Positions 1 through 54,167 of a stretch of DNA of 64,000 nt are shown one piece after another. The notes under the pieces are model-generated. The model saw only the letters and a list, made by a program, of their open reading frames with translations. It did not search any database and was not told the DNA's origin. The stretch is taken from contig CAWJZV010000034.1 in NCBI GenBank assembly GCA_963847445.1, forward strand, positions 288,001 through 352,000, read 5' to 3'. Source of the stretch: an uncultured delta proteobacterium (lineage in GTDB: Bacteria; Desulfobacterota; Binatia; UBA9968). The first letter of the stretch is position 1. The number at the start of each line of letters is the position of its first letter. The position numbers and the translations under genes were made by a program.

Positions 1-455
1 TCGTAAGACGGCTTGGCGATGGACGCGATCGGATAGCCGGCCGCGGCAATGGCTTGGCCAAGGAGCTCCCAGTTGCCGATATGTCCGGAAATCAGCACCG
101 CGCCTTTGCCTTCCGCGAGCGTATCATCCAGCACTCGCCGCGCCGCGTCATCCAGTTTAGGCACTGAGCGGTGCAGGCGGGATAGTTCCCAGAGCGATTC
201 GGCGAAATGAACGAACATGCGCCGGGTGATTATCACCGCGTCGAGCTCGGGTAAAACCGCAGTTAGCTGTGCGCGCGCTCGCCGCGCCGCACTGACAAAA
301 ATATGCGGTGCCAGACAACCGACCAGGCGCAGAAAACCGCGCAGCGGCAATACTCGGGCGGCGGCAAATCCCAGCCGCATCAAGCCGTAGAGCAAGTCGT
401 TCTTTACGCGCTGGTGCCAACTCCAGCGGCTGCGCTTTTCTCTCGTCTTTATCAC
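1..455 (-). CDS. Lipid A lauroyl/myristoyl acyltransferase (HtrB/LpxL family), runs off the window edge
   Basis: Manual translation of an open minus frame missing from the ORF track: ...LDDTLAEGKGAVLISGHIGNWELLGQAIAAAGYPIASIAKPSY; HxGNWE motif; start (GTG ~455) uncertain. Confidence 0.8.
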   Translation of the reverse strand, partial: MIKTREKRSRWSWHQRVKNDLLYGLMRLGFAAARVLPLRGFLRLVGCLAPHIFVSAARRARAQLTAVLPELDAVIITRRMFVHFAESLWELSRLHRSVPKLDDAARRVLDDTLAEGKGAVLISGHIGNWELLGQAIAAAGYPIASIAKPSY

Positions 456-573
456 GGTCAAACATTAGCACGGCTTAGCCGAACCTCATAACTCATGTAA
501 GCATGATCAGTTACGACGTAAGAGTGCGTTTCAATGGGCCCTCGTTTTGGATGCCGACGTTGAGGGCAGGGAT

Positions 574-595
574 GGGGCGCAATTGATTGCGCCCC
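574..595. repeat. REP-like palindrome GGGGCGCAAT-tg-ATTGCGCCCC
   Basis: Perfect 10-bp inverted repeat in intergenic DNA. Confidence 0.5.
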
Positions 596-600
596 AGGAT

Positions 601-858
601 TCACGGGCCGTGGTACTTGAGGTTCTTGTGAAGTGAAACCGTCGGCACTTCAAACGAAGTCCGCTCAGCCATCCCGTCCCAAACTAACTGCGAAGCGAGA
701 ATTGGACCGTAAGCGCAAGTCTTCTTCCCGCTCTCCTTATCCGCCGCCGACGTGTTCAAATCCACCGGCGGATTGTTCGCCCGCTGCTTGCCCTTGTGCG
801 CGTACTGGTCAATCGGCTTTTTCTTTGCGATGCTCGCCGGCTTCTTTGCCTTGGCCAT
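601..858 (-). pseudogene. N-terminal remnant of a site-specific adenine DNA methyltransferase (type III Mod-like)
   Basis: KQRANNPPV...KKTCAYGP..ASQLVWDGMAERTSFEVPTVSLH resembles the conserved N-terminus of these enzymes; ends at 85 aa with no catalytic motifs; GGGAG RBS upstream. Confidence 0.65.
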
Positions 859-955
859 TTACTCTCCCCAATACAGGTTTAGAGATTCAGCGCTGAAAAT
901 TGTCCGATCTTACGCGATGCGCTAGCAGCCTTACAAGTCTCGACCTGCGGTTGCG

Positions 956-1357
956 TTGACATCGGGAATGGCACGGCTTAAGACTGACTTGATGCTGGTT
1001 TCTTCGCAGTACCGGGCGGTCGTTCAACTCCTCGCGCTAACGCTTCATACCTTTCTTCTTGGCATTGTTGTCCTCGCTTCGGTTCCCCAGGTCTCGGATC
1101 GAGATGGGGACTATCGACCGGCGCAGGCGAGTCGGCTAGCTGCATTGCACGATCAGATTGACGGCAGGGCGCTCAACCGCGGGGTAAAACCTTATGACAG
1201 CCCGAGCCCTGGGGCGTTCTTTGCGTCGGCTCGTTTCCGTCAGGCTCAGGTCCAACAAGCGGCGCTGTTCGGTTTCCATATAAATGATGGTTTTTATCGC
1301 CAACCTTCGCTGGGGTTTCTGCCGATCCGTTCTCCGCCTTTCCAACTTCCTCTGTAA
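956..1357 (+). CDS. Hypothetical protein with one hydrophobic segment
   Basis: 133-aa ORF ending ...IRSPPFQLPL; no recognisable family. Confidence 0.3.
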   Translation: MTSGMARLKTDLMLVSSQYRAVVQLLALTLHTFLLGIVVLASVPQVSDRDGDYRPAQASRLAALHDQIDGRALNRGVKPYDSPSPGAFFASARFRQAQVQQAALFGFHINDGFYRQPSLGFLPIRSPPFQLPL

Positions 1358-1546
1358 CTTTCGAGCAGTTTGATAGCGAACGACTGGTCTGGCCCGCCGA
1401 TGCGTGCGAGCGCGGGACGAGTCGTCGCTCGTGGTGCTGTAATGTGATCGAACATCGCCGCGGTCCGCGCGCGCTATTTCACTCGCGAAGAGGCAAAGCT
1501 CTTCGGGGTGAGATGCCGCCGCGCCGTCGGCGAGATAGGAGTCGAA

Positions 1547-1636
1547 ATGTTAGGGGGATTGTCTACCGATACAATTATCGTAATCGGCTTAATGGCTGCC
1601 GCAGTGCTGTTTATCATTTGGGTGAGAAGACAATAG
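1547..1636 (+). CDS. Small single-pass membrane protein, 29 aa (MLGGLSTDTIIVIGLMAAAVLFIIWVRRQ)
   Basis: AGGAG RBS just upstream of ATG; one hydrophobic helix followed by basic RR; below the ORF-track length cutoff. Confidence 0.55.
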   Translation: MLGGLSTDTIIVIGLMAAAVLFIIWVRRQ

Positions 1637-1868
1637 TGTCTCAGGGGCAGCCTTGCTCTCGCTCCGCAAACTAATTCCGGCATGCCCACGCGCACTGGAG
1701 CTGCGTGTGGGCTCGCCAAAAAAGGCGCGCACATGATTCGCACGCACTCCACTTACAATCAATGTCTGCTGCCAAGCCCACTGGTGAAATTTTTCTGTGG
1801 GCGGGCGCGGCGGTGCCGGCGCTGAAAAATTGCTGATTGCCTAAACGGCGTCTTACGCAGTTTTAATC

Positions 1869-1905
1869 TGCATAGATATTAGGCTGCGCGCTCAATTTCT
1901 GGGCA
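1869..1905. promoter_or_regulatory. Tandem 17-bp enhancer-like boxes upstream of the glnK sigma54 promoter
   Basis: TGCATAGATATTAGGCT (1869) and CGCTCAATTTCTGGGCA (1889); similar pairs precede three other sigma54 promoters. Confidence 0.55.
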
Positions 1906-1921
1906 GCGTAGCCGTCATTAA

Positions 1922-2425
<504 letters not shown>

Positions 2426-2455
2426 TAAGTATCAAGCTAACTTGAGGAGGAGATC

Positions 2456-4064
2456 ATGAAAGTTTTACGGTTTAATTTACAGCGATTTAGCTGCGCGTTG
2501 GCGTTGGGAACGCTGCTAATGACGAGTATTTCGTTGGCGCAGGAAGCACCGGCGCCGGCGGAGGTGAAAGTTGAAGCGGCTCCGGCACCCGCTGCGCCGG
2601 CGGAGACGAAGAAGGAAGACCCCCTGGCCAAGCCGGCACAGTTTACCCAGGGGATGCTCGAGCAAATCGGCGGTGCCAAGGTTGCTTTGGACACCATGTG
2701 GACTTTGATCGCCGGCATGCTGGTATTTTTTATGGGTCTGGGTTTTGCCTCGTTGGAATCGGGATTATGCAGGGCGAAGAATACCGTGACGATTCTCGCG
2801 AAAAACTTCATTGTGTTCGCGGTGGCATCCATCGCCTTTTTGCTTGTCGGCTGGGGTTTGATGTTCGGCGACGGCAATCCATTTTTCGGTACGCAAGGAT
2901 TGTGGTTTGTCGGCGGCGCGGACAACAGTCCGGCGACGGGCGGATGCCTACAAAGGCGTTTATTCCTCGATCAACTGGACGGGCGTGCCGCTGTGGACGA
3001 AGTTTTTCTTCCAACTGGTGTTTGCCGGCACGGCGGCGACAATTGTTTCGGGCGCGGTTGCCGAGCGCATCAAGTTCGGGGCTTTTTACATCTTCAGTTT
3101 TGCAATGGTCGCGCTTATCTATCCGGTCGTGGGGCACTGGATTTGGGGCGGCGGCTGGCTCGCCAAGCTTGGCATGTTCGATTTCGCGGGCTCGACGGTG
3201 GTTCATTCGGTCGGCGGTTGGGCGGCATTGACCGGAGCCATAGTTCTCGGGCCCCGCATTGGCAAATTTAATCGCGACGGAAAGCCCTTGCCGATCCCTG
3301 GCCACAGCATCGCGATGGCGACCATCGGCGTATTCGTGCTCTGGTTCGGTTGGTTCGGATTCAATCCAGGCAGCACCATGGCCGCTGATGCCGGCGCTAT
3401 CGGCCGCATCGCCGTGGCGACTAACACCGCGGCGGCCGCGGCGGCAATCTCCGCCTCGATCACAGCGTGGTTGTTTTTGGGCAAGCCTGATCTGACGATG
3501 ATCTTAAACGGCGCTTTGGCAGGTTTGGTTGCAATCACTGCCCCCTGCGCATTCGTCAGTATCCCAAGTTCGCTCGTCATCGGTCTGTTCTCTGGCGCGT
3601 TGGTTGTGCTCGCGGTGCTCTTTTTCGACAAAATTAAGATTGACGATCCAGTCGGCGCGACCTCCGTGCATTTGGTCTGCGGCGTATTCGGCACCATCTG
3701 TGTCGGTCTATTCGCCCAGGATCAGTTCACTCCAGGTACCACTGGAAACGGTTTGTTCTTCGGTGGGGGCACCAAATTGTTATTTGCGCAGCTTGCGGGC
3801 GTAGTAGGTGTCGGCGGCTTTGTCTTGGTCTCTTCGCTAATCATTTGGAAGATAATTGACGCGACCATCGGTGTCCGGGTATCGGCAGAAGAAGAAATCG
3901 AAGGTTTGGATGTTGGCGAGCACGGCAACATCGCTTACCCGGACTTTGCCTCGACGTCATCCAGTAGTTTTCGATCCCAAATGGGCAGCGGTAGCGGTTC
4001 AGTGGCCCAGTACGAGCCTCAGACGGCTCCGGTCCTCGCTACACAAAGCGGCAGCAAGTCTTAG
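2456..4064 (+). CDS. amtB: Ammonium transporter AmtB (one frameshift near 2940)
   Basis: Two overlapping ORFs give LDTMWTLIAGMLVFFM, GAVAER, DFAGSTVVH, WFGWFGFN and DDPV motifs; signal-peptide-like N-terminus. Confidence 0.93.
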
Positions 4065-4090
4065 GATCGCTGCAGGTGCGGCGCAAGTTC

Positions 4091-4136
4091 GACAGAACCG
4101 GGACGCGCGCCTCGGGTTCGCCATCCCGGTTCTGTC
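4091..4136 (+). other. Strong stem-loop between amtB and glnA
   Basis: GACAGAACCGGGA...TCCCGGTTCTGTC, 13-bp stem, no long U-tract. Confidence 0.6.
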
Positions 4137-4193
4137 TTAAGTGAAACTGACAACCACCAGGATTGTTAATATAGACAAGGAGTGGAGAAAAAC

Positions 4194-5610
4194 ATGTCCG
4201 TAAAAGACGCCCTAGAGATGGCGAAGAAGAACAAAGTAGAGATCGTCGATTTCAAGTTTATCGACGTGCCCGGGCTGTGGCAGCATTTTTCGATTCCCGC
4301 AACGGATTTCGACGCCGATAAGTTCGAACAAGGGTTGGGCTTTGACGGTTCGAGCATCCGCGGCTTTCAGAGCATCAACGAATCGGACATGATCCTGATC
4401 CCCGATCCCGACACCGCGATGATGGATCCGTTCACCGAACATCCCACCCTAAGCTTTGTCTGTAACGTGTTGGATGCGATCACCCGCCAGCCCTATTCCC
4501 GCGATCCCCGCTATATCACTCAGAAAGCCGAGAAGTATCTAAAGTCCACCGGCTTGGCCGACATCAGCTACTGGGGTCCCGAGATCGAGTTCTTTATCTT
4601 CGACAGCATCCGCTTCGACCAGAACCACCATGAAGGCTACTATCACATCGACTCCAGCGAAGGGTTCTGGAACTCCGGCAACGCCGACGGCCCCAATCTG
4701 GGCAACAAGATTCGTTACAAAGAAGGTTACTACCCGGTTCCGCCGATGGATCAGTATCAAGACCTGCGCTCCCAGATGGTGCTCAACTTAGAGAAATGCG
4801 GCATCAAGATCGAAGTGCATCACCACGAAGTCGCCACCGGCGGCCAGACCGAGATCGACATGCGCTTTGACACCATGACCAAGATGGCCGACAAGGTGCT
4901 GCTGTATAAGTATGTGGTTAAGAACACCGCCAAGCAAAGAGGCAAAGTGGTCACCTGTATGCCCAAGCCGCTGTTTCAGGACAATGGTTCCGGCATGCAC
5001 TGTCACCAGAGCTTGTGGAAGTCGGGGAAGAATATTTTCTACGACAAGAAGGGCTATGGCCTGATCAGCGAGACCGCCAGACACTACATTGGCGGCCTGC
5101 TCAAGCACGCCCACGCGCTGTGCGCCTTCATCGCGCCGACGACCAACTCCTACCGCAGACTGGTGCCCGGCTACGAAGCGCCGATCAACTTGGTCTACTC
5201 GGCGCGAAACCGCAGCGCCTGTGTGCGTATTCCCATGTACTCGACCAGCGAGAAGGCCAAGCGGCTGGAGTTTCGCACTCCTGACCCGAGCGCCAATCCG
5301 TACCTCGCCTTTCCGGCGATGTTGATGGCGGGGTTGGACGGGATTAGAAACAAGATCGAGCCGCCGAAACCGATCGACAAGAACTTGTACGAATTGGAAC
5401 CCGAAGAGGCCGCCAAGGTGAAGTCGATGCCGGGATCGCTGGACCAGGCCCTCGATGCCTTGGAGAAGGATCATGATTTCCTACTCAAGGGCGATGTCTT
5501 CACCAAGGACGTGATCGAGACCTGGCTGGAGTACAAACGCAAGCATGAGGTCGATGCCATCCGGCTTAAGACCCCATCCTTGGGAGTTCGCTCTCTATTT
5601 CGATATCTAA
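4194..5610 (+). CDS. glnA: Glutamine synthetase type I (frameshift near 5566 masks the C-terminus [13 protein letters not shown])
   Basis: [35 protein letters not shown], adenylylation-site motif NLYEL; canonical end lies in the alternative frame with TAA at 5608-5610. Confidence 0.95.
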
Positions 5611-5691
5611 AAAATGGCTGGGCACAGTGGACTGAGGGACGAAGTCCGCTCAGTCCACTGTGCTTTTGATGGAGTAACTTTTGGGGGACCC

Positions 5692-6438
5692 ATGGGTGAG
5701 GTCGTCGTTTTTCAGCATGACCCATTCGAAGATTTGGGTTTCTTCGCCGAAGTTTTTGAAAAACAGCACGCCGCTTATCGTGTGGTCCGCTTGTTCCACG
5801 GTGAAATGCCAGAGGAGAACTGGGAACAGGTCAAGGCGCTGATCATTCTCGGCGGGCCGATGAACGTCGACGACGAAACCAGGTTGCCGATTCTCCGCTG
5901 GGAAAAGCGCATCATTCGCGCTGCCATCGATGAAGCGGTGCCGGTTCTAGGAATTTGTTTAGGCGCGCAGTTGATTGCCACGACTCTCGGTGCTGCGGTG
6001 TTTCACGGCGCGGTTAAAGAGATCGGCTGGAGTCCGATTTCGATCACGCCCCATGGCCAGGTCGATTCCTTACTCGGCTATCTGCCGGAGAATGCGACGG
6101 TGTTCCAGTGGCATGGCGACGGCTTCGAGCTGCCAGCGGGGGCGATTTTGTTGGCGTCGTCACAGCACTATCGCACCCAGGCATTTCGCCTCGGCAAGAC
6201 TATTTACGGCTTGCAATTTCATCTCGAGGTGACGCCGCGCATGATCGAACGCTGGCTCGATGAGCGTTCCAAAGACCTGGCGCTGTCGCCCTACGTGCAG
6301 CCGGACAAAATCATGGCCGATACGCAAAATTATGCGCCGGCGCTGAAATACTATGGCGAGCGCTTTCTATCCGAGTTTCTCCGGCGCGTCGCTCGCTCGA
6401 AAAGCCGCAAAACGGACGGCGGGATGGTTTCGCTATGA
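5692..6438 (+). CDS. Class I glutamine amidotransferase-like protein
   Basis: ILGGPM, GICLGAQ nucleophile elbow, QWHGD, QFHLE: Cys-His-Glu triad present. Confidence 0.9.
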   Translation: MGEVVVFQHDPFEDLGFFAEVFEKQHAAYRVVRLFHGEMPEENWEQVKALIILGGPMNVDDETRLPILRWEKRIIRAAIDEAVPVLGICLGAQLIATTLGAAVFHGAVKEIGWSPISITPHGQVDSLLGYLPENATVFQWHGDGFELPAGAILLASSQHYRTQAFRLGKTIYGLQFHLEVTPRMIERWLDERSKDLALSPYVQPDKIMADTQNYAPALKYYGERFLSEFLRRVARSKSRKTDGGMVSL

Positions 6439-7022
6439 AGAAGGTGCTGGTTATCGATGATCATGAACCTTCGCGCCGTCAACTGATTCAAAGTCTGCAC
6501 GGCTGCGGTTATCAGATCGCCGCCGAGGGTTCCAGCGGCAGGGTGGCGTCGGCGCTGGCGCGTGCTTCGGCTGCTGAAGTCATTGTCATGGCCGTGGGCT
6601 TGGTGGATCTCGATGGTATCGACGCGGCGCGAGAGATCATGCAGTCCGACCCGCTGCCGATCGTGCTGGTCACGAGTCATGCCGATCCTTCGACGGTCGC
6701 GCGCGCGACTAATGCTGGCGTGATGAGTTATCTGGTCAAACCCCTGCGCGTCGAAGAGCTCGCGCCGGCGATCGAGCTCGCCGTCAGCCGCTTTCGTGAA
6801 TTTGTTTCCTTGCGCGACGAAGTCTCCACGCTCAAGCTCAATCTCGAAGAACGCAAGTTAATCGAGCGCGCCAAAGGGTTGTTGATGGAGCAGCGTCATC
6901 TTTCCGAAGAGCGCGCCTATTCGTTGATGAAAAAGGCCAGCATGAACATGCGCAAGCCGATGTCGGACATCGCCCAGGCGATCTTACTCGCCGGCGGACT
7001 GCTTACCGAGACCAATCCCTGA
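6435..7022 (+). CDS. Receiver-ANTAR transcription antiterminator (NasT/AmiR-like, atypical receiver)
   Basis: REC fold (VLVIDD, IVLVT, YLVKP) plus ANTAR motif LEERKLIERAKGLLM...SEERAY..MKKASM; VIVMA where the phosphoacceptor Asp is expected. Confidence 0.92.
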   Translation: MKKVLVIDDHEPSRRQLIQSLHGCGYQIAAEGSSGRVASALARASAAEVIVMAVGLVDLDGIDAAREIMQSDPLPIVLVTSHADPSTVARATNAGVMSYLVKPLRVEELAPAIELAVSRFREFVSLRDEVSTLKLNLEERKLIERAKGLLMEQRHLSEERAYSLMKKASMNMRKPMSDIAQAILLAGGLLTETNP

Positions 7023-7040
7023 ATTTAACGCTTTTCGCCA

Positions 7041-7116
7041 TTCACCGCAGAAACGCAAAGCTTTCGAGCGGTGTCCAATCTTGACTTCTCTGTGGTGGTT
7101 GCGCCTCCGTGGTGAA
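7041..7116. repeat. Imperfect inverted-repeat element (TTCACCGCAGAAACGCAAAG...GCGCCTCCGTGGTGAA)
   Basis: Complementary ends built from degenerate ~9-nt units; sits after the ANTAR gene. Confidence 0.5.
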
Positions 7117-7149
7117 ACATCTTCTAGTTGCAGCACAGCCGCCTCTGGC

Positions 7150-7188
7150 TGCTTGTTGTTTAGGCATCTCGTGACTGATGAACAGGCG
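7150..7188. promoter_or_regulatory. Tandem 17-bp enhancer-like boxes
   Basis: TGCTTGTTGTTTAGGCA (7150) and TGACTGATGAACAGGCG (7172). Confidence 0.55.
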
Positions 7189-7248
7189 ACGATTATTAAC
7201 AGAATATTAAAACGTCATGATATCGCGATGTTTCTGATTGCTGGCAAG

Positions 7249-7263
7249 TGGCACAGCGGTTGC
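7249..7263 (+). promoter_or_regulatory. Sigma54 promoter
   Basis: TGGCAC-AGCGG-TTGC. Confidence 0.85.
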
Positions 7264-7278
7264 GTTGTCAGGTAAGCG

Positions 7279-7343
7279 AGGGCGAAGTAGCCCTGGGTCG
7301 AGCAAAGGCGCTCACCGGTGAGCCGGTGGAGCGCCTTTTTTTT
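7279..7343 (+). promoter_or_regulatory. ANTAR-target dual hairpin overlapping an intrinsic terminator (attenuator 1)
   Basis: P1 AGGGC-gaagta-GCCCT; P2 GAGC-aaaggc-GCTC; terminator AAAGGCGCTCACCGG-tgag-CCGGTGGAGCGCC followed by T8. Confidence 0.85.
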
Positions 7344-7356
7344 GGAGAATAAGAAA

Positions 7357-7551
7357 ATGAACACGAAGAAGTCTGCAACCGACAAGATCTTCGACAACAT
7401 TATTTTCCTGGCCGATGTCTTTGGCGACCTGGCGGACAAGGATATCCCGCCATTGCCGGTGTTGGAGATGGCGCGCTGTTTCGAGCTTGCGCCGGCCTAC
7501 GTCGTTCGCGCCAGCCGGCGCCGGCGGAAAGACTGGCCGCTATGGAATTAG
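7357..7551 (+). CDS. Hypothetical 64-aa protein
   Basis: GGAG RBS; first ORF after the attenuator; overlaps the next gene; basic C-terminus RRRRKDWPLWN. Confidence 0.55.
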   Translation: MNTKKSATDKIFDNIIFLADVFGDLADKDIPPLPVLEMARCFELAPAYVVRASRRRRKDWPLWN

Positions 7552-7895
7552 CACCGGTGCAATATCGCCTTACCGAAGTGTCGGGTTGGGTGATCGTGAC
7601 GCCTTCGGGGAAGGCTGAAAACAATGAACCGCTGCGGGTGCGCTATTTGTTTCGCCGCTGGCTGACACGCCAGGGAATTCGAGTCATCGTCAACCTGAAG
7701 CAACTCGAGCAGTTCGGCGTGTGGGAAGTGGGCGTGCTGACATCGTTCAAACGCGAAGTCGACCAGCGCGTCGGGATGCTGCGGCTGTGCCACCTCAATC
7801 CGGAACTGAAGGGATATTTTCACGACGATCGGTTCACCGAGCAGTTTGAAATCTTCGATGACCTCGAAGAAGCCATGATGGCAGGAAAGCATTGA
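7542..7895 (+). CDS. STAS-domain (anti-anti-sigma-like) protein
   Basis: WVIVTPSG...RVIVNLKQLEQFG..EVGVL....GMLRLCHLNPEL...FEIFDDLEEA follows the SpoIIAA pattern. Confidence 0.75.
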   Translation: MELAPVQYRLTEVSGWVIVTPSGKAENNEPLRVRYLFRRWLTRQGIRVIVNLKQLEQFGVWEVGVLTSFKREVDQRVGMLRLCHLNPELKGYFHDDRFTEQFEIFDDLEEAMMAGKH

Positions 7896-8662
7896 CGGCA
7901 ATGGGACAAATGCCTGACGCGGTTAACGAACTCAATCCGGGGATTTTTCAGATTCGCGGCCTCAAAGGCAGCAGTCATAGTTACGTTCTCAAAGGCGATT
8001 ACATGAACGTGATGATCGACACCGGTTCGGATCAAAACTTTCCGGTGCTGGAGCGCGGCTTGCGCCATATCGGCATGAAGGTGCGCGACGTCAACCTGGT
8101 GATCAACTCGCACGAGCATTGCGATCATATTGGCGCCAATCGTTACTTTCAGGAAACCGCGATGATCGCGGCCTATCGTTTGGCCGCGTCGAAGATGACT
8201 ACCGGCGATTACTACGTGACCATGTACAAGGGCAACGATCTGAACGAACCGCCGATGCGGGTGCATCTGTGGTTGGAGAATATGACGCGCATCGACCTGG
8301 GCAATTATACGCTGCGCGTCTTTCACACGCCGGGTCACACTTCCGGCTGCATTTCGATCATCGAGAGCACCTGCGGTCTGCTGTTTTCCGCCGACAGCGT
8401 GTTCGCCGGCGGCACGCTCTCCTACATCGCCGAGAGCGGTAGTATCGGCGACTACCTCGACTCGCTGGCGCGGCTGCGCAGTTTCAGTCTGAAGGCGCTC
8501 TATCCCGGTCATGGGCGAGTGTCGGCGACGCCGATCGAAGATATTGATCGCGCGGTCGCCAACGCGCAACTGTTGCTGGAAACAAAGAACAACGAGAAGG
8601 TCGACATTTTCTATCAGAATGCGCATGAGAATTCCGATGCAATGGCAGGGATGGTGTTGTAA
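7892..8662 (+). CDS. Metallo-beta-lactamase-fold hydrolase (glyoxalase II-like)
   Basis: IDTG, SHEHCDHIG, HTPGHT, LFSAD, YPGHG metal motifs; true start may be ATG at 7901 or 7910. Confidence 0.9.
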   Translation: MTAMGQMPDAVNELNPGIFQIRGLKGSSHSYVLKGDYMNVMIDTGSDQNFPVLERGLRHIGMKVRDVNLVINSHEHCDHIGANRYFQETAMIAAYRLAASKMTTGDYYVTMYKGNDLNEPPMRVHLWLENMTRIDLGNYTLRVFHTPGHTSGCISIIESTCGLLFSADSVFAGGTLSYIAESGSIGDYLDSLARLRSFSLKALYPGHGRVSATPIEDIDRAVANAQLLLETKNNEKVDIFYQNAHENSDAMAGMVL

Positions 8663-8736
8663 GCGACTAAGAAACGGTTCGTAAAAATATTTACGCTTGC
8701 GGCGCCGAGACGCCGCAAGCACGAGAAGAACGGTCC

Positions 8737-8812
8737 GGGTGTCGACGCTGAAGCCCGCGACCATGGCAATGGCGCCTGATTCCTCAAACGGGATCGAGCG
8801 CCATTTTTATTT
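8737..8812 (+). promoter_or_regulatory. Second ANTAR-type attenuator
   Basis: P2 GGC-aatggc-GCC overlaps terminator stem AATGGCGC...GCGCCATT with TTTTATTT tail; weaker P1 with loop GACGCT. Confidence 0.65.
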
Positions 8813-8839
8813 GCAACGAATGATTAAAGAGGTGACGCG

Positions 8840-8911
8840 ATGATCGAAGAACAGGTTTCCAGCAATAACCAACGACTCGAAGACCAAGAAGCGCGGAAAG
8901 GATTGCCATGA
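8840..8911 (+). CDS. Putative 23-aa leader ORF (MIEEQVSSNNQRLEDQEARKGLP)
   Basis: GAGGTG RBS; ATGA overlap with the downstream gene. Confidence 0.3.
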   Translation: MIEEQVSSNNQRLEDQEARKGLP

Positions 8912-9903
8912 AAGTGAAAATGTTTCCGATGCTCGCATTGACGCTATCGCTGGCCCTCGTGCAGGGAAGCGGCGCCCAAGAAAAATTGGAAAAACTTCAC
9001 GTCGGTGTGGCCGGGTTAAGCGGCGCGCTGGCGCATGCGTTCATCCCGAAAGACACCGGCCTGTACGAGAAATTTGGCCTGGATGTGGATTTAGTTTTCT
9101 TTCAGGGCGGCACCCAGGGAGTGCAATCTCTGATTGCCGGCGGCGTGCAATTCATCGTGTCTTCGGGATCGGAGGTTATTGCCGCGCGGGTTGCCGGTTC
9201 TGACATCACTATCATCGCAGGCTACATGAATACGGTGCCTTACAGCATAGTCGCCGACAAAGGCGTCCGCCGGTTCGAGGACTTGAAGGGCGGCAAGGCG
9301 GCAGTCAGCCGGTTCGGCACCACTTCAGATCTCGCGTTACGTTATGCCTTTGAACAGAATGGGTTGTTCCCAGGCAAAGATATTACCTTAGTCCAGTTGG
9401 GCGATCAGGGCGCCCGCTTCGCGGCGCTCACCGGCGGCACGGTGCAAGCGACGGTGATCTCGCCCCCCTTCGATCTCACCGCCAAAAAACTGGGATATCG
9501 AATTCTCGCCGATATGGCGGATCTCGGCTTGCATTATCAGCATGAAGCCTTGGCCACCACGGAGCGCATGCTTGCGGCCAGACCGGATACGGCACGCCGG
9601 TTTCTCAAGGCGTTCATCGCCGGCATCCATGTCTGGATGACCGATGAGAAAAAGACCAAAGAGATATTGGCCAAACGGTTAAGGATCAAGGATAACGAAA
9701 TTCTCGACGAAACCTATTCGGCCTACAAGAAACTGACTGAAAAGAAACCTTATCCGACTCTCCCTGGCCTGGAATTTCAGATCGCCGATTTGGCGCTGCG
9801 AAACGCCAAAGCCAAAGGCGCCCGGGCCGATACATTCGTCAATCTCGGCTTGCTGAAGGAGATCGACAGCAGTGGTTATATCGACGGTCTGTACAAAAGA
9901 TAG
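8908..9903 (+). CDS. ABC transporter substrate-binding protein, NMT1/SsuA (nitrate/sulfonate/bicarbonate) family
   Basis: Signal peptide; GLYEKFGLDVDL, DLKGGKAAVSRFG, RFAALTGGTVQA. Confidence 0.88.
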   Translation: MKVKMFPMLALTLSLALVQGSGAQEKLEKLHVGVAGLSGALAHAFIPKDTGLYEKFGLDVDLVFFQGGTQGVQSLIAGGVQFIVSSGSEVIAARVAGSDITIIAGYMNTVPYSIVADKGVRRFEDLKGGKAAVSRFGTTSDLALRYAFEQNGLFPGKDITLVQLGDQGARFAALTGGTVQATVISPPFDLTAKKLGYRILADMADLGLHYQHEALATTERMLAARPDTARRFLKAFIAGIHVWMTDEKKTKEILAKRLRIKDNEILDETYSAYKKLTEKKPYPTLPGLEFQIADLALRNAKAKGARADTFVNLGLLKEIDSSGYIDGLYKR

Positions 9904-9960
9904 CGCATGATTCGAAGTAGGCGCTCCGTTATCAACCCTATTTTGGTGAAGGAGATGAAC

Positions 9961-10526
9961 ATGCAGAAAGTAACAAAGATTTTAGTCCCGATCGATTTTT
10001 CTCCCGAGTCCGGCAGGCCTTGCGCGATGCTGCCTCAATAGCGCGGGAAACCGGCGCGCAGCTGATCGCGTTGCATGTCATCGATGAAAGAGTCGAGAGA
10101 GATATGTTGCTGTCTTCGATCGTGTCGGTCGACGGTTGGCGGTTTCCCTTGGACGGCTTGGCAGCGATCCCGCTGGACCTTGTGATGCGCGAGCGAGCGC
10201 TCGATTTGTGGAACTTTGTCGAGCGTGAGGCCGAGCCGCTGAGCCAGGACAGGGTTAAGAAAGTGGTCAGACTCGGCAAGTTCACCAGAGAAATAACCAA
10301 CTTCATGCGCGATGAGGAAGTCGATCTGCTGGTTCTCAAACTGCGCCGGAGGCGGCGGTTTCCCGATCTAACGACGCTACAGCTTGTCACCATTGCTGGG
10401 CGGCTGTCATGTCCAGTTTTGCTGGACCCGCCGGCCGTCCGCGACCTTCCGGAGCCAAAAAATGGTTTGTTGACTTTCAATCTGTTACCGACGTGGAGAT
10501 TCCTGAGCTGTCGCCAGGCGATCTAA
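9961..10526 (+). CDS. Universal stress protein (frameshift near 10015)
   Basis: MQKVTKILVPIDFSPES then, in the shifted frame, A..ETGAQLIALHV...VDLLVL...SCPVL; AAGGAG RBS. Confidence 0.8.
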
Positions 10527-10591
10527 CGATCAGGCCGGCTTCTGGACTAGCGGGTTGGCAATGGCGCCGATCCATGCCGTGTTCTGACGTT

Positions 10592-10630
10592 TGCCTAAAT
10601 TGTTGGCGGTAGGCGAATAAACCATAGGCA
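10592..10630. promoter_or_regulatory. Tandem 17-bp enhancer-like boxes
   Basis: TGCCTAAATTGTTGGCG (10592) and CGAATAAACCATAGGCA (10614). Confidence 0.55.
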
Positions 10631-10692
10631 AGCCGCTTTCGAGTCGAACGTCAAAGGTGCTGAATTTATTTTATTATTGCCGATTCACATGG

Positions 10693-10707
10693 CGGCATAA
10701 GCGTTGC
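10693..10707 (+). promoter_or_regulatory. Sigma54 promoter of nirA
   Basis: CGGCAT-AAGCG-TTGC (GG-N10-GC). Confidence 0.7.
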
Positions 10708-10726
10708 GTATAGAGCATCGCGAGAG

Positions 10727-11182
10727 ATGAACAAGATTGAAGAATATAAGAAGGAGAAAGCCGGCCTCGATATTCTCGGTGACATACCGCGCTACGCCGC
10801 TGCAGGATGGGAAAGCATCACCGACGGTGACAAGGAGCGTTTAAAATGGGCCGGGATTTTCTTTCGGCGGCAGACTCCCGGGCGCTTCATGATGCGGCTG
10901 CGCTTCGCCAACGGCTTCATCAACGCGGCGCAGCTGCGCACCATCGGTGAAATTAGCCGCGACTTCGGCAAAGCCTTCGCCGATATCACGACGCGCCAGC
11001 AGATTCAGTTGCGCGAATTCAGAATCAACGATGTGCCGGAGATCTGGCGGAGACTGCGCGCCGTCGATTTGATTTCTTTGCAGACCGGCATGGATAACAT
11101 TCGCGGCGTGATCGGCTGCCCGGTGGCCGGTCTCACTCCCAATGAGTTGTTCGACGCTTCGCTTTGCAATGTGATTGCTTAA
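10727..11182 (+). pseudogene. nirA: Ferredoxin-nitrite reductase, N-terminal ~145 aa only
   Basis: MNKIEEYKKEK, RLKWAG, FMMRLR, DITTRQQIQL, QTGMDNIR..GCPVAG; no continuation seen downstream. Confidence 0.85.
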
Positions 11183-11212
11183 ATTTTCAGCAGCAGCGTC
11201 AATAATTAGGCA
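11176..11212. promoter_or_regulatory. Tandem 17-bp enhancer-like boxes
   Basis: TGCTTAAATTTTCAGCA (11176) and GCGTCAATAATTAGGCA (11196). Confidence 0.55.
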
Positions 11213-11293
11213 ATTATTCATCCGTGGGGTTTCCCATCGGTGAAAAAGCGGTGTGAAATGAAAGATCGAATTACTAGTGGATGGAATTTTCCA

Positions 11294-11308
11294 TGGCATT
11301 CGTTTTGC
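11294..11308 (+). promoter_or_regulatory. Sigma54 promoter of the porin gene
   Basis: TGGCAT-TCGTT-TTGC. Confidence 0.8.
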
Positions 11309-11427
11309 TCGATTTTTACGAAATTAAATATTAGTGAAATTTGTCCGGACTTAGTGAATAGTTCGTTTGGGTTTAGTGACGTATTTGCTATAAATTAGCG
11401 AAATCGATTTTCGAGGAGGATTGGGTA

Positions 11428-12668
11428 ATGAAACGTGGAATGGTTCGAATCGCGCTCTTAGCTGGAGTCATCATGCTTAGGGGGCAAAACGTTAAGGCGG
11501 CCGAAGATAAGCCGCTCGGCCCAGGCTGGTTGAGTCTGGATAGCAGTGTCGGCAAGCTCGATGGCGCCATCGCCAACGGCAAAAGTGGGTTGGAAAATGC
11601 TTTGGGCATCGGCATCAGCGGATTTATCGATATGGGCTACACATGGAGCTCGAATCATCCCGGTAATGGGGCTAATATCTCCGGCCGCTATTTCGATAAA
11701 GACAATAATCAGTTTAATGTTAATAATTTTCATCTCGCACTAGAAAAGCCGGAAAAGGATTGGGGCGTTGGTTTCAGGGTTTCCGGTGATTTTGGTCGAT
11801 ATGGCGAGCTGCTGCACGAAGCGACACAGTGGAACAAGACCGGTGCCAGGTTTTGCTGCGGACCGTCGGCCGAACTGCGTGAGGCGTATCTTAACACCAC
11901 GATTCCTGTGGGCGCGGGGATCGGTATCAAAGGCGGCTTGTTCACAACTCTCTTGGGCACGGAAATTCTCAACAACCCCGGCGCATATAACGACAATATC
12001 TCTCGTTCTTTCGCGTTTAACTTTGGTGTCCCACTGCGCCATCTCGGGATGTTGTTCAGCTATCCGTTTCACAAAACGGTCACGGCCACTTTAGGCGTGG
12101 TGACCGGTTGGGATAATCCGCACGACAACAACAGCGCGCCGTCCGGTATTGTCGGCGTGAACCTTAACCCCGAGCGATGCCTTTGGCTTGGCGAGCAATC
12201 TCATATATTGGTCCCGAACAAAGGCATAACACCGGACGCCAAAGGCTGACCTGGAGCAGCGTGGCGACGATCAAACCGACGGATCCTTTGACAATTTTGC
12301 TCGAATATACGTTTGGCGGGGAATCTGAAGTGGCCACGCCGACGAGCAATAAGGAAGATGCTTACTGGCATGCTCTTGCGGCTATCGCATCATGGAGCTG
12401 GACCGACCGTTTCACCACGGCTCTGCGCGGCGAGGTTTTCTTCGATAATGAAGCTGCGCGAACTGCCGGCCTATCGGCCACTACTCCCCAACATAATGTC
12501 ACACTCGGCGAACTGACTTTGACCGGCAGCTATAAGTTTACCAAGATGCTGATCGGTCGCGCCGAGCTGCGTCAGGATTGGGCCAACCACCCAGTCTATC
12601 AAAAAGGCCGAAACAGCGCCGATAGCAATCAAACGACGATCGGCATGCAATTGCTTTACACGTTCTAA
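11428..12668 (+). CDS. Outer-membrane beta-barrel porin (BBP2/DUF1597-like), frameshifted near 12180-12250
   Basis: Signal peptide; GFID.GY, F.TLLG.E, N.NISRS..F..G.P..H.G, GWDN, RAELRQD; terminal ...QLLYTF. Confidence 0.8.
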
Positions 12669-12694
12669 GTCGATTGCCTCCACTTAGGGCGGAC

Positions 12695-12727
12695 GGGGAG
12701 CAGCCGATGGGCTGCTCCCCTTTTTTT
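12695..12727 (+). terminator. Intrinsic terminator
   Basis: GGGGAGCAGCC-gatg-GGCTGCTCCCC followed by T7. Confidence 0.9.
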
Positions 12728-12842
12728 GGCTCGATGACAGCTCCCGCCACAGGCTTCGTTAGTTTGCCCTGCCCGCGCCGCTGGAAAAAAAACCTGGCGA
12801 CTGTTAGTCCTGAATTATCTCGTCGTCGGCTGACCCGTTCAA

Positions 12843-14430
12843 TTGATTCGCCAAAACCACTTTCCGTTCATTCTCGTCATTTTAAGTTCTCTGTTGTTTT
12901 TCTTCGCTCTCGGCTCGCGTGATTTCTGGGCGCCGGTGGAGCCGCGCTACGCCGAGATCGTTCGGGTGATGTTTGCCAAGGGCGAGTGGATCGTTCCCAC
13001 CGTCAACGGGGGCATTTACACCGACAAGCCGATTCTCTTCTTCTGGCTGGCGCTGATCGCGTCGAAGCTTTGCGGCGGCGTGTCCGAGTGGACGGTGCGG
13101 TTTCCCGCCGCGCTCGGCGGCGTCGGATTTATTTTATCGACGTACTTCTTCGGTCGTGATTTCTTCAGCCCGCGCATCGGCTTGATCGCGGCGGCGATCC
13201 TGGCGACGACCATGCGCGTGATCTGGGAAGCGCGCTGGGCCCATGTCGACATGGTTTTTTGTTGTTGGTTCTTGCTGTCGGTTTACTTCGCTGCACGAAC
13301 TTTTCTCCGCAAAGATCGCGGTTACGAAATTCTTTCGCCTACGTTTTCATGGGATTGGCGGTACTGACCAAGGGGCTGATCGGCGTCGTCTTGCCGGGCT
13401 TGGTGTTTGGTTTCGTTCATGCTCGTGCGGCGCGATTGGCGCATGATCGCGGCAGCTAAGCTTCATTTGGGAATTCCCATTTTCCTGCTGGTCACCATGC
13501 CGTGGCTTTATCTAGTTCAGCAAGCGACCGACGGGCGTTGGCTCAGCGAGTTTATTTACATCCATCATTTGCAGCGTTACACCGCCGGTGCCGGCCATCG
13601 GCAGCCGGTCTATTATTATCTGACGACGCTACCCACCGATTTTTTGCCATGGACGATCTTCGCTATCCCCGCACTGATCGCGCGTTGGCCTTATCGCCAA
13701 GCCTTGAAGGATGTCTCCAGTCAACTTTGTCTCTGCTGGTTTCTGGCGATCTTGTTATTTTTTGCTATCTCCGATACCAAGCGCGATCTTTATTTGCTGC
13801 CGTTGCTGCCGACGGTGGCGTTATTGGTTGCTTGCTACTGGGACTCTCTCGGCGCTGAAGCGCGACGCGCTAGGCGCGTCATCCCGCTGGCTCACGGCCG
13901 GCTTTTTCGCGCTGCTTGCTCTCGGCGCTTTCCTGATTCCAGCGGCGGCGTGGTGGCTGCGACCCGATGCGCTGCTGCCGCTGCTGCCGGCGAGTCTGGT
14001 ATTGACGATCGGCGGCGCGCTTGTCGCCGCATACTTGCTGCAGCGCGAGTTTTGTAGGGCGATGGTGGCGATCGTCGCTTTGATGACACTGTCGATGGTC
14101 ACGGCGGCGCTTTGGATATTCCCTTATTTGGAAAATTTTAAATCGCCGCGACCGTTCGCCTTGGAGATCAAGAGAGTGGTGCCGGCGTCAGCGCCGTTGT
14201 ATATCTATGCCGACACCATGCATGATTTTAATTTTTATGCCGAGCGCGAAGTCATGCCGGTTCTAACTTCACCGGCGGTATTGGCAAAATTGCTAAAGAC
14301 AGGCCAAACTGGGTTTCTCTTGGTCAGGGAGCGCGATTTCGGCAGATTACCGATGTTGTCGCGGACTTGGGTAATCGCCAGCGATGGTAAAGGGCGTATG
14401 CCGTGGCATTTAGTTGAGTTCAAAAGATGA
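12843..14430 (+). CDS. ArnT/PMT-family (GT39/GT83-like) membrane glycosyltransferase, about 3 frameshifts
   Basis: EPRYAEI.R.M...GEWIVP, DKP.LFFW, LTKG.IG, H.QPVYYY, K...YLLPL spread across four overlapping ORFs. Confidence 0.85.

Positions 14431-53319: not shown

Positions 53320-54167
<848 letters not shown>

Follow-up and report, generated by a model that had tools for sequence, protein, structure and literature searches.

How is an RNA-binding antiterminator controlled when its receiver lacks the aspartate through which a kinase would act? The question is raised by a locus on contig CAWJZV010000034.1 (assembly GCA_963847445.1) of an uncultured delta proteobacterium, within the stretch of 64,000 nucleotides that was analysed here (the window). 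Behind glnA, the gene for glutamine synthetase (GS), a gene for a class-I glutamine amidotransferase (GATase) overlaps a gene for an antiterminator composed of a receiver and an ANTAR domain (REC-ANTAR). A preliminary description of this DNA had proposed that the GATase, or else the P-II or the STAS protein, may sense glutamine on behalf of the antiterminator. The answer that we favour has two parts. The first is a nitrogen cascade with two tiers, similar in kind to GnfR and NasT systems, which we consider very probable whatever the GATase does. The second is a direct, probably glutamine-responsive action of the GATase on the antiterminator, which we put forward as a tentative proposal that could well turn out to be wrong.

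The antiterminator gene (6435-7022, forward strand), besides which no other ANTAR gene was found in the genome of the window (7.19 Mb, 91.8% complete), encodes a protein of 195 residues with a receiver domain (PF00072, E 3e-19) and an ANTAR domain (PF03861, E 7e-20). The protein belongs to the REC-ANTAR family (COG3707), aligns over its full length with Rv1626 (1s8n, E 1e-38) and with an EutV-type regulator, and has close relatives that are automatically annotated as 'response regulator NasT'. Alanine had been read at the phosphoacceptor position in the preliminary description, and the alignments bear this out: Ala53 (GCC, 6591-6593) pairs with the aspartate of the MDV motif in Rv1626 and of the MDI motif in Thermotoga CheY (HMMER alignments), and stands opposite the corresponding MDV/MDI aspartate of the EutV-type regulator. 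We take this aspartate, found at the end of beta-3 in canonical response regulators, to be the phosphoacceptor. Because alanine occupies its place in the window protein, the receiver is presumably not switched by a kinase. The 11 neighbouring open reading frames (ORFs) scanned, up to 11.2 kb, contain no histidine-kinase domain and, as had also been claimed, no adjoining gene of the NasS/AmiC type; no genome-wide search for orphan kinases was made.

A precedent for such a protein is AmiR of Pseudomonas aeruginosa, a pseudo-receiver without the residues for phosphorylation that is regulated by a bound, co-encoded ligand sensor, AmiC (PMC8934654; this and the other PMC sources are drawn on only as far as their available text goes). 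The window protein resembles AmiR in being a pseudo-receiver antiterminator, with the GATase as the candidate for the part that the co-encoded sensor plays there. Unlike in the AmiR lineage, the rest of the receiver's acidic pocket (Asp8/Asp9, Thr80 and Lys102) is intact. Furthermore, the loss of the aspartate was probably a separate event within a PdtaR/GnfR-like branch, because AmiR does not appear in the best 60 of the 199 matches of the ANTAR protein to solved structures, the closest of which are Rv1626 and the EutV-type regulator.

The substitution is widespread among relatives. All 23 orthologues from 23 other genomes have alanine at this position, a set that includes one sequence (L021) from the unpublished genome G035 and for which the statement stands without it. 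The 80 best loci of a species-representative collection comprise 77 with alanine, three with serine and none with aspartate; as the search was seeded with Ala-type sequences, these counts speak for breadth but say nothing about frequency. In a set of 150 representatives at 50% identity, to which three long forms were added, 120 have aspartate, 17 alanine and 10 another residue, while six do not cover the site, and the 17 with alanine are the nearest relatives, sharing the motif xAVGLxDxDG. The records of the Ala/Ser loci are labelled as uncultured 'delta proteobacterium', Candidatus Binatia, Syntrophobacter(aceae), Methylomirabilota/Rokubacteria and Acidobacteriota metagenome-assembled genomes (MAGs), and their shared context is glnB-amtB-glnA upstream, with glnA on the same strand in 37/80. 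Judged by sequence, the Ala/Ser receivers are a large, GnfR/NasT-like subfamily of pseudo-receivers that work independently of a kinase. The three serine forms (L076, L077 and L079) read MSVGL at the site. Two natural fusions within the wider family keep the aspartate: P0122 (548 aa) joins REC-ANTAR to GAF and HisKA_2/HWE kinase domains in a PdtaS-PdtaR-like single chain, and P0123 (400 aa) joins it to a GNAT acetyltransferase. In the relative G008 the ANTAR gene (L056, G008:C11, 7511-7993) is without the first third of the receiver and lies upstream of genes for a porin and an UrtA-like urea-transporter binding protein.

The RNA on which such a protein would act lies just downstream, where the preliminary description had placed it. 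A sigma54-type promoter, TGGCACAGCGGTTGC (TGGCAC-N5-TTGC; 7249-7263, forward strand), begins 227 nt past the ANTAR stop codon. It is followed on the same strand by hairpin P1 (7279-7294; AGGGC, hexaloop GAAGUA, GCCCU), hairpin P2 (7300-7313; GAGC, hexaloop AAAGGC, GCUC) and an intrinsic terminator with arms of 12 and 13 nt and a T8 tract (7307-7343; -23.7 kcal/mol in a fold scan). The 3' half of P2 falls within the 5' arm of the terminator, and the two structures are mutually exclusive. ANTAR substrates are described as having a dual-hexaloop architecture in which the first loop position is A and the fourth is G (Ramesh et al., PMC3369931), and the window leader likewise presents two hexaloop hairpins of which the second competes with an intrinsic terminator. 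The consensus of the P1 loop is [A/G]NNGNN, with A at position 1 in 9 of the 18 aligned loci.

Comparison with other genomes supports this assignment. The same sigma54 pattern occurs downstream of the ANTAR gene in 17/23 orthologous loci, and the P2 core was found in 17 other loci. In an 18-row alignment of leaders 92.2% of cells pair, a share that falls to 55.6% or less when the partners are shifted along the alignment, and three P1 pairs change on both sides, making this a covarying stem; P2 is invariant and hence uninformative on covariation. Searched with a covariance model of these 18 rows, the genome yields one site at 58.5 bits and a next best at 17.5 bits, although the model is dominated by the invariant P2 and divergent targets may escape it. 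A match at 53960-54010 (13.6 bits) was dismissed as apparently coding sequence. A generic genome scan for dual hexaloops with a terminator gave 40 matches that are essentially noise except for the known site, and an Rfam scan of positions 1-14000 (E<=1) found no family for the leader, its one hit being a chance mir-622 match on the hairpin behind glnA. We conclude that the leader is probably a well-formed ANTAR switch, to which the ANTAR protein would be expected to bind.

The cascade that we propose would work as follows. In its first tier, nitrogen limitation would activate a sigma54 promoter at 2003-2017 and with it glnB-amtB-glnA, and read-through of a weak hairpin behind glnA would yield the translationally coupled GATase and REC-ANTAR proteins. 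In the second, the promoter at 7249-7263 would give rise to the leader that ends at the terminator at 7307-7343. A dimer of the ANTAR protein would bind the hexaloop hairpins P1 and P2, with P2 sequestering the 5' arm of the terminator, and transcription would then continue into genes for a small ORF, a STAS protein and a metallo-beta-lactamase-fold (MBL) protein and, in relatives, onward into nirA, nrtABC/narK or cynS. The activity of the antiterminator would be set by its own amount and not by kinase switching. Where the GATase gene directly precedes the ANTAR gene (clade A), the co-made GATase-fold protein would most likely bind glutamine and restrain or free the antiterminator, in a role comparable to that of AmiC for AmiR. 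Taken as a whole, with the role of the GATase included, this explanation has in our estimation a little less than an even chance of being correct.

The circuit of sigma54 and ANTAR protein is itself already known, and on this point the preliminary description, which spoke of an undescribed RNA-level control layered on sigma54, was mistaken. In Geobacter sulfurreducens the sigma54 master system GnfL/M activates nitrogen genes together with the gene for GnfR, an ANTAR regulator that binds CAGGCAANGGCGCC, a motif overlapping the terminator, and thereby relieves termination (PMC2995071). The window repeats this arrangement of sigma54 promoters followed by terminators, with a REC-ANTAR regulator that is probably under a sigma54 master system. 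Its P2 region reads GAGCAAAGGCGCUC, a near copy of the GnfR motif, and the leaders of a second clade introduced below read, by eye, AGGCAAAGGCGCC. Geobacter also belongs to the same phylum, to judge from the relatives, whose records are labelled 'delta proteobacterium' and Syntrophobacter. One difference is that GnfR has a kinase, GnfK, by which it is phosphorylated, whereas the window protein has alanine at the phosphoacceptor position. Another is that GnfR acts on nif genes, whereas the genes concerned here are for nitrite, nitrate, cyanate and ammonium uptake; the available text of PMC2995071 makes no mention of a GATase.

Activation by NtrBC/RpoN is likewise combined with antitermination by NasT in Pseudomonas and its relatives (PMC10783516). 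The NasS-NasT systems of Paracoccus, Pseudomonas and Azotobacter (PMC3795266, PMC10783516) share with the window the combination of NtrBC/sigma54 and REC-ANTAR and a dual-hexaloop leader ahead of nitrite/nitrate genes. Control in these systems is by a protein partner instead of phosphorylation, and its counterpart here would be the GATase. Unlike in NasS-NasT, however, no nasS adjoins the regulator gene, the candidate partner has a GATase fold and is not NrtA-like, and the presumed signal is glutamine and not nitrate or nitrite. Where the partner-sequestered class has a co-encoded cytoplasmic partner of periplasmic-binding-protein fold, the gene beside the antiterminator at this locus encodes a GATase.

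One could suppose that this is nonetheless an ordinary NasS-NasT system with unlinked genes, the partner being a NasS/AmiC-type binding protein encoded elsewhere. A gene for an NMT1-family binding protein does lie 1.9 kb downstream (8908-9903), and NrtA-like genes stand behind the ANTAR gene in the relatives G037, G035 and G031. Against this, the NMT1-family protein has an N-terminus that looks by eye like a signal peptide, and its best matches are SsuA-type and not NrtA/NasS-like models. The NrtA-like genes of the relatives encode proteins of 419-456 aa, head ABC-transporter operons and, in the 456-aa copies, have their domain starting only from about residue 96. The preliminary description had allowed that a NasS homologue elsewhere would speak against it, but a tblastn search of the window's genome with an NrtA-like query returned nothing at E<1e-15. 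We therefore regard an unlinked NasS as very improbable.

The GATase gene (5692-6438, forward strand) encodes a stand-alone, TM1158/PRK07053-like protein of 248 residues. It is a class-I GATase by its fold match (PF00117, 74.9 bits against a cut-off of 22.8) and by a triad of Cys89, His177 and Glu179 in the motifs LGICLGAQ and FHLE, which align with the same motifs of TM1158 (1o1y, E 6e-36). Its score of 216.7 bits against NCBIfam NF005458 (PRK07053) is below the curated cut-off of 250 and does not support the named equivalog assignment. No synthase domain is fused to it or adjoins it in the neighbouring ORFs scanned. The intact triad and the ATGA overlap with the ANTAR gene (6435-6438), both pointed out in the preliminary description, are present in the sequence. 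Its statement that the pair directly follows glnA holds in so far as these are the next genes downstream, but a spacer of 82 nt with a hairpin (5622-5663) separates glnA from the GATase gene.

The TM1158-type GATases of solved structure (1o1y, 9xfs and 3m3p) have in common with the window protein a length of about 240-250 aa, the Cys-His-Glu triad, a C-terminal helical extension and the lack of a synthase domain. Their depositions are named 'conserved hypothetical protein' or 'glutamine amidotransferase' with no function given, and a linkage to ANTAR proteins is unreported in the literature searched. Nor did we find there a class-I GATase-ANTAR pair, supplements such as Table S2 of PMC3369931 (predicted ANTAR RNAs) being outside the scope of the search; the available text of PMC4676874 and PMC12316311 describes no such pair, and that of the review PMC12591593 contains nothing relevant on pseudo-receivers or amidotransferases.

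The case for a functional link begins with the distribution of the two genes. The GATase gene is directly upstream of the ANTAR gene in 18/23 orthologous loci, and 16 of 17 intact clade-A pairs have the ATGA overlap. Among the 80 species-representative loci, the arrangement occurs in 17, all 17 from the Desulfobacterota-like group. The gene order whose conservation the preliminary description proposed to test is kept in most orthologous loci, but does not extend to most of the species representatives. The second clade (clade B) emerged when 401 genomes of the phylum were searched, the query being a fused homologue: its order is reversed, with the ANTAR gene ahead of the GATase gene, in 11 genomes from six families, and its GATases keep the triad in 9/9. 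By eye, clade B has a sigma54 promoter ahead of the ANTAR gene and another one, followed by a GGCAAAGGCGCC leader, ahead of porin-amtB-glnB-amtB. Finally, one homologue, P0121, is a natural REC-ANTAR-GATase fusion of 452 aa, the nearest among the matches listed being unfused. A 471-aa open frame in G078 that resembled a second fusion was ruled out by stops between the two genes. Two clades and one fusion indicate, as far as gene arrangement can, that the GATase is tied to the ANTAR gene well beyond chance.

The alternative that deserves most attention keeps the cascade and demotes the GATase to a mere operon mate, which would serve nitrogen scavenging as a glutaminase or gamma-glutamyl hydrolase under nitrogen control. 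The antiterminator would then be constitutively active once made and would act as a feed-forward delay, leading from sigma54 through the regulator to a second sigma54 operon. Overlaps of the ATGA type are common in ordinary operons. Relatives of the GATase, moreover, bear automatic names, and only automatic ones, of the 'gamma-glutamyl-gamma-aminobutyrate hydrolase family' or 'GMP synthase-like' kind, which would suit such an enzyme. What this account explains less readily is that in both clades, with their opposite gene orders, the GATase appears to be produced together with the regulator, from a gene ahead of the switch, instead of belonging to the switched genes. The gene amiC is placed likewise relative to amiR. 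In the co-transcribed nasS-nasT pair, too, the sensor gene is on the side of the regulator (PMC5424462). The fused protein P0121 also counts against a mere operon mate.

A further observation in favour of regulation concerns the catalytic residues. The nucleophilic cysteine is replaced by glycine in L019 (one of 17) and in L078 (one of 17 loci), from two MAGs that are about 94% identical to each other by hand count. The histidine, the glutamate and the ATGA coupling are kept in both. Because the gene and its coupling persist in two MAGs where the cysteine is lost, there is a hint that catalysis by the GATase is dispensable, and this counts against a scavenging enzyme.

Structure prediction points in the same direction, if weakly. 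With orthologue alignments, the predicted GATase-ANTAR complex scored 0.50 (runs of 0.50, 0.32 and 0.53), as against 0.00 for the best of three controls; all contacts (100%) agree between runs, and the partner pLDDT is at least 86. The mark that it reaches is attained by 116/157 solved complexes and by 2/215 mismatched pairs, but at scores of 0.60 or less the solved complexes that attain it number just 18 of the 157, and both of the passing mismatches fall in this range. The complex prediction that the preliminary description had suggested thus separates the pair from its controls and still grades only as weak, so that a physical complex between the two proteins may be entertained but not pressed.

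Several other observations weigh against a regulatory role for the GATase. Among the 80 Ala/Ser-type loci, 63 have no GATase beside the ANTAR gene. Of five relatives searched, G035 has no GATase match, G032, G037 and G055 have homologues of 39-43% identity only, and G008 has a 75% identical copy that lies behind glnB-amtB, without an ANTAR gene, on another contig than its ANTAR gene; in G035 and G032 the ANTAR gene directly follows glnA. The coupling of the Asp-to-Ala change to the GATase that the preliminary description envisaged does not survive these counts. Conversely, clade B receivers keep the aspartate (8/8 scored), and a kinase may act there; because of this, the GATase has not just taken the place of a kinase. 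GATases of this family are numerous and for the most part unconnected with ANTAR (2107 matches, with P0121 the sole fusion among 120 listed), and the triad is intact in nearly all copies, as expected of a working enzyme. An AlphaFold2 model of P0121 from an unpaired alignment has a pLDDT of 92.9 but a pTM of 0.64, and the packing of its domains is not confident. A further candidate fusion in G029 (G029:C15, L017), with an in-frame GATase-ANTAR junction of 442 aa, rests on one extra base relative to its neighbours in a low-contig assembly of the indel-prone kind, and may be real or a long-read indel. We left it out of the fusion count, since one-base indels that are missing from short-read contigs occur in the assembly of the window itself. 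Against the cascade as proposed, and not against the GATase in particular, it counts that a single target site was found in the window's genome and that the nirA gene there is a remnant.

Taking both sides together, we give the operon-mate account a substantial chance, somewhat short of even. The GATase as a glutamine-sensing partner remains plausible on the basis of synteny, the fusion, the loss of the cysteine in one lineage and the weak complex prediction. The more general proposition, in which GATase-fold proteins are cytoplasmic glutamine sensors that bind both Ala- and Asp-type REC-ANTAR proteins and gate the leaders of sigma54-driven operons for the uptake of ammonium, nitrite, nitrate and cyanate, is more doubtful still, with perhaps one chance in three of being right.

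The conserved neighbourhood suggests yet another partner. The pseudo-receiver could be controlled by the P-II protein GlnB or by feedback-inhibited GS, leaving the GATase irrelevant or auxiliary; the control of TnrA and GlnR by GS in Bacillus offers an analogy. The arrangement glnB-amtB-glnA-ANTAR is the widest conserved context, and among the 37 loci with glnA upstream on the same strand are some from Methylomirabilota and Rokubacteria that lack a GATase. The operon of G037 ends with a P-II gene, downstream of the ANTAR gene. The pocket residues kept despite the lost aspartate suggest, in addition, a surface that is still functional. This synteny is equally explained by shared regulation, however, and in Rokubacteria the genes between glnA and the ANTAR gene vary. 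We considered these intervening genes as alternative partners in their own right and rejected them, as they encode variously a porin, a CitMHS transporter, an SBP_bac_5 binding protein or an FKBP protein and none is consistent. Control by P-II or GS seems to us unlikely.

If the GATase does act on the antiterminator, it would add a further class of ANTAR partner to the two already known, histidine kinases and binding proteins such as AmiC and NasS, and would be a protein-based glutamine sensor at the RNA level that has already become a pseudo-enzyme (Cys to Gly) in one lineage. Bacteria are known to read out glutamine through GlnD/P-II, through GS-bound transcription factors and through riboswitches; a sensor of GATase fold that acts on an antiterminator at the RNA level would add a new route to these. 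The GATase aside, the locus draws attention to a large and so far unremarked branch of pseudo-receivers in uncultured Desulfobacterota-like, Methylomirabilota/Rokubacteria and Acidobacteriota MAGs, and its readable RNA target should help to annotate nitrogen regulons in soil and sediment genomes.

The first tier of the cascade depends on the layout of the genes upstream. The promoter at 2003-2017 (TGGCAC-N5-TTGC, forward strand, upstream of glnB) was found by a pattern scan that gave three matches in the window where chance alone would give 0.34, and is likely to be the start of a glnB-amtB-glnA-GATase-ANTAR transcription unit. All genes of this unit are on the forward strand: glnB, encoding P-II (2087-2425; PF00543, E 5e-34), amtB, which occupies two frames in the assembly (2456-4064; PF00909, E 3e-106 for 2907-4064), and glnA, encoding a type I GS (4194-5610; TIGR00653, 659 bits). 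The true stop codon of glnA is at 5608-5610 once a one-base insertion near 5563-5571 is discounted, the end at 5669 in the ORF list being a product of this insertion. The inserted base lies in a CTTAAG context, puts the final 12 codons of glnA out of frame and is found in the same form in G003 (L006). The A-run at 5609 also has one surplus A in the assembly, and both surplus bases are absent from the short-read contigs of four runs. One short-read DNA contig of 99% identity to the window spans 5585-6983 with a single indel, at 5609, outside the GATase and ANTAR genes; because it carries no indel inside either gene, their frames are not assembly artefacts.

The hairpin in the spacer between glnA and the GATase gene (5622-5663, forward strand) has 15-bp arms followed by TTTT and may be a weak terminator or an mRNA-end element. 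Related GGACTGAG...CTCAGTCC repeats are present in most orthologous spacers and absent from L019 and L020, where the spacers measure 25-30 nt. Because the hairpin trails only four T and the spacers of L019 and L020 are short, read-through from glnA into the GATase and ANTAR genes is likely, and the three genes would then be co-transcribed. A contig from an RNA library (metatranscriptome) crosses the GATase/ANTAR junction (6326-6652, five differences), although DNA carry-over is possible; RNA-library contigs leave 6718-7487, including the leader, without cover, and their depths were unused for ranking genes. A second glnA copy elsewhere in the genome (C7:235261-237013; 97.7% identity over residues 29-463) adjoins a P-II gene of 72% identity, and may be a duplicate or reflect strain heterogeneity (contamination estimate 6.9%).

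Beyond the leader, the first gene is a small ORF of 64 aa (7357-7551), followed by genes for the STAS-domain protein (7542-7895; PF01740, E 5e-6) and the MBL protein (7892-8662; PF00753, E 2e-26), all on the forward strand. This trio (7357-8662), whose MBL member has a weak match to the ODP family, is conserved ahead of nirA in many relatives. Relatives also have the ferredoxin-nitrite reductase gene nirA, nrtABC-like transporter genes, narK or the cyanase gene cynS directly behind the ANTAR gene or behind STAS-MBL; tblastn found no nrtA, narK or cynS in the window's genome. Its nirA remnant (10727-11161, forward strand) retains the first 145 of about 515 residues, where relatives have an intact nirA behind STAS-MBL. 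The remnant is followed by the third sigma54-type match in the window (11294-11308) and a gene for a BBP2-like porin that extends over two frames (11428-12668).

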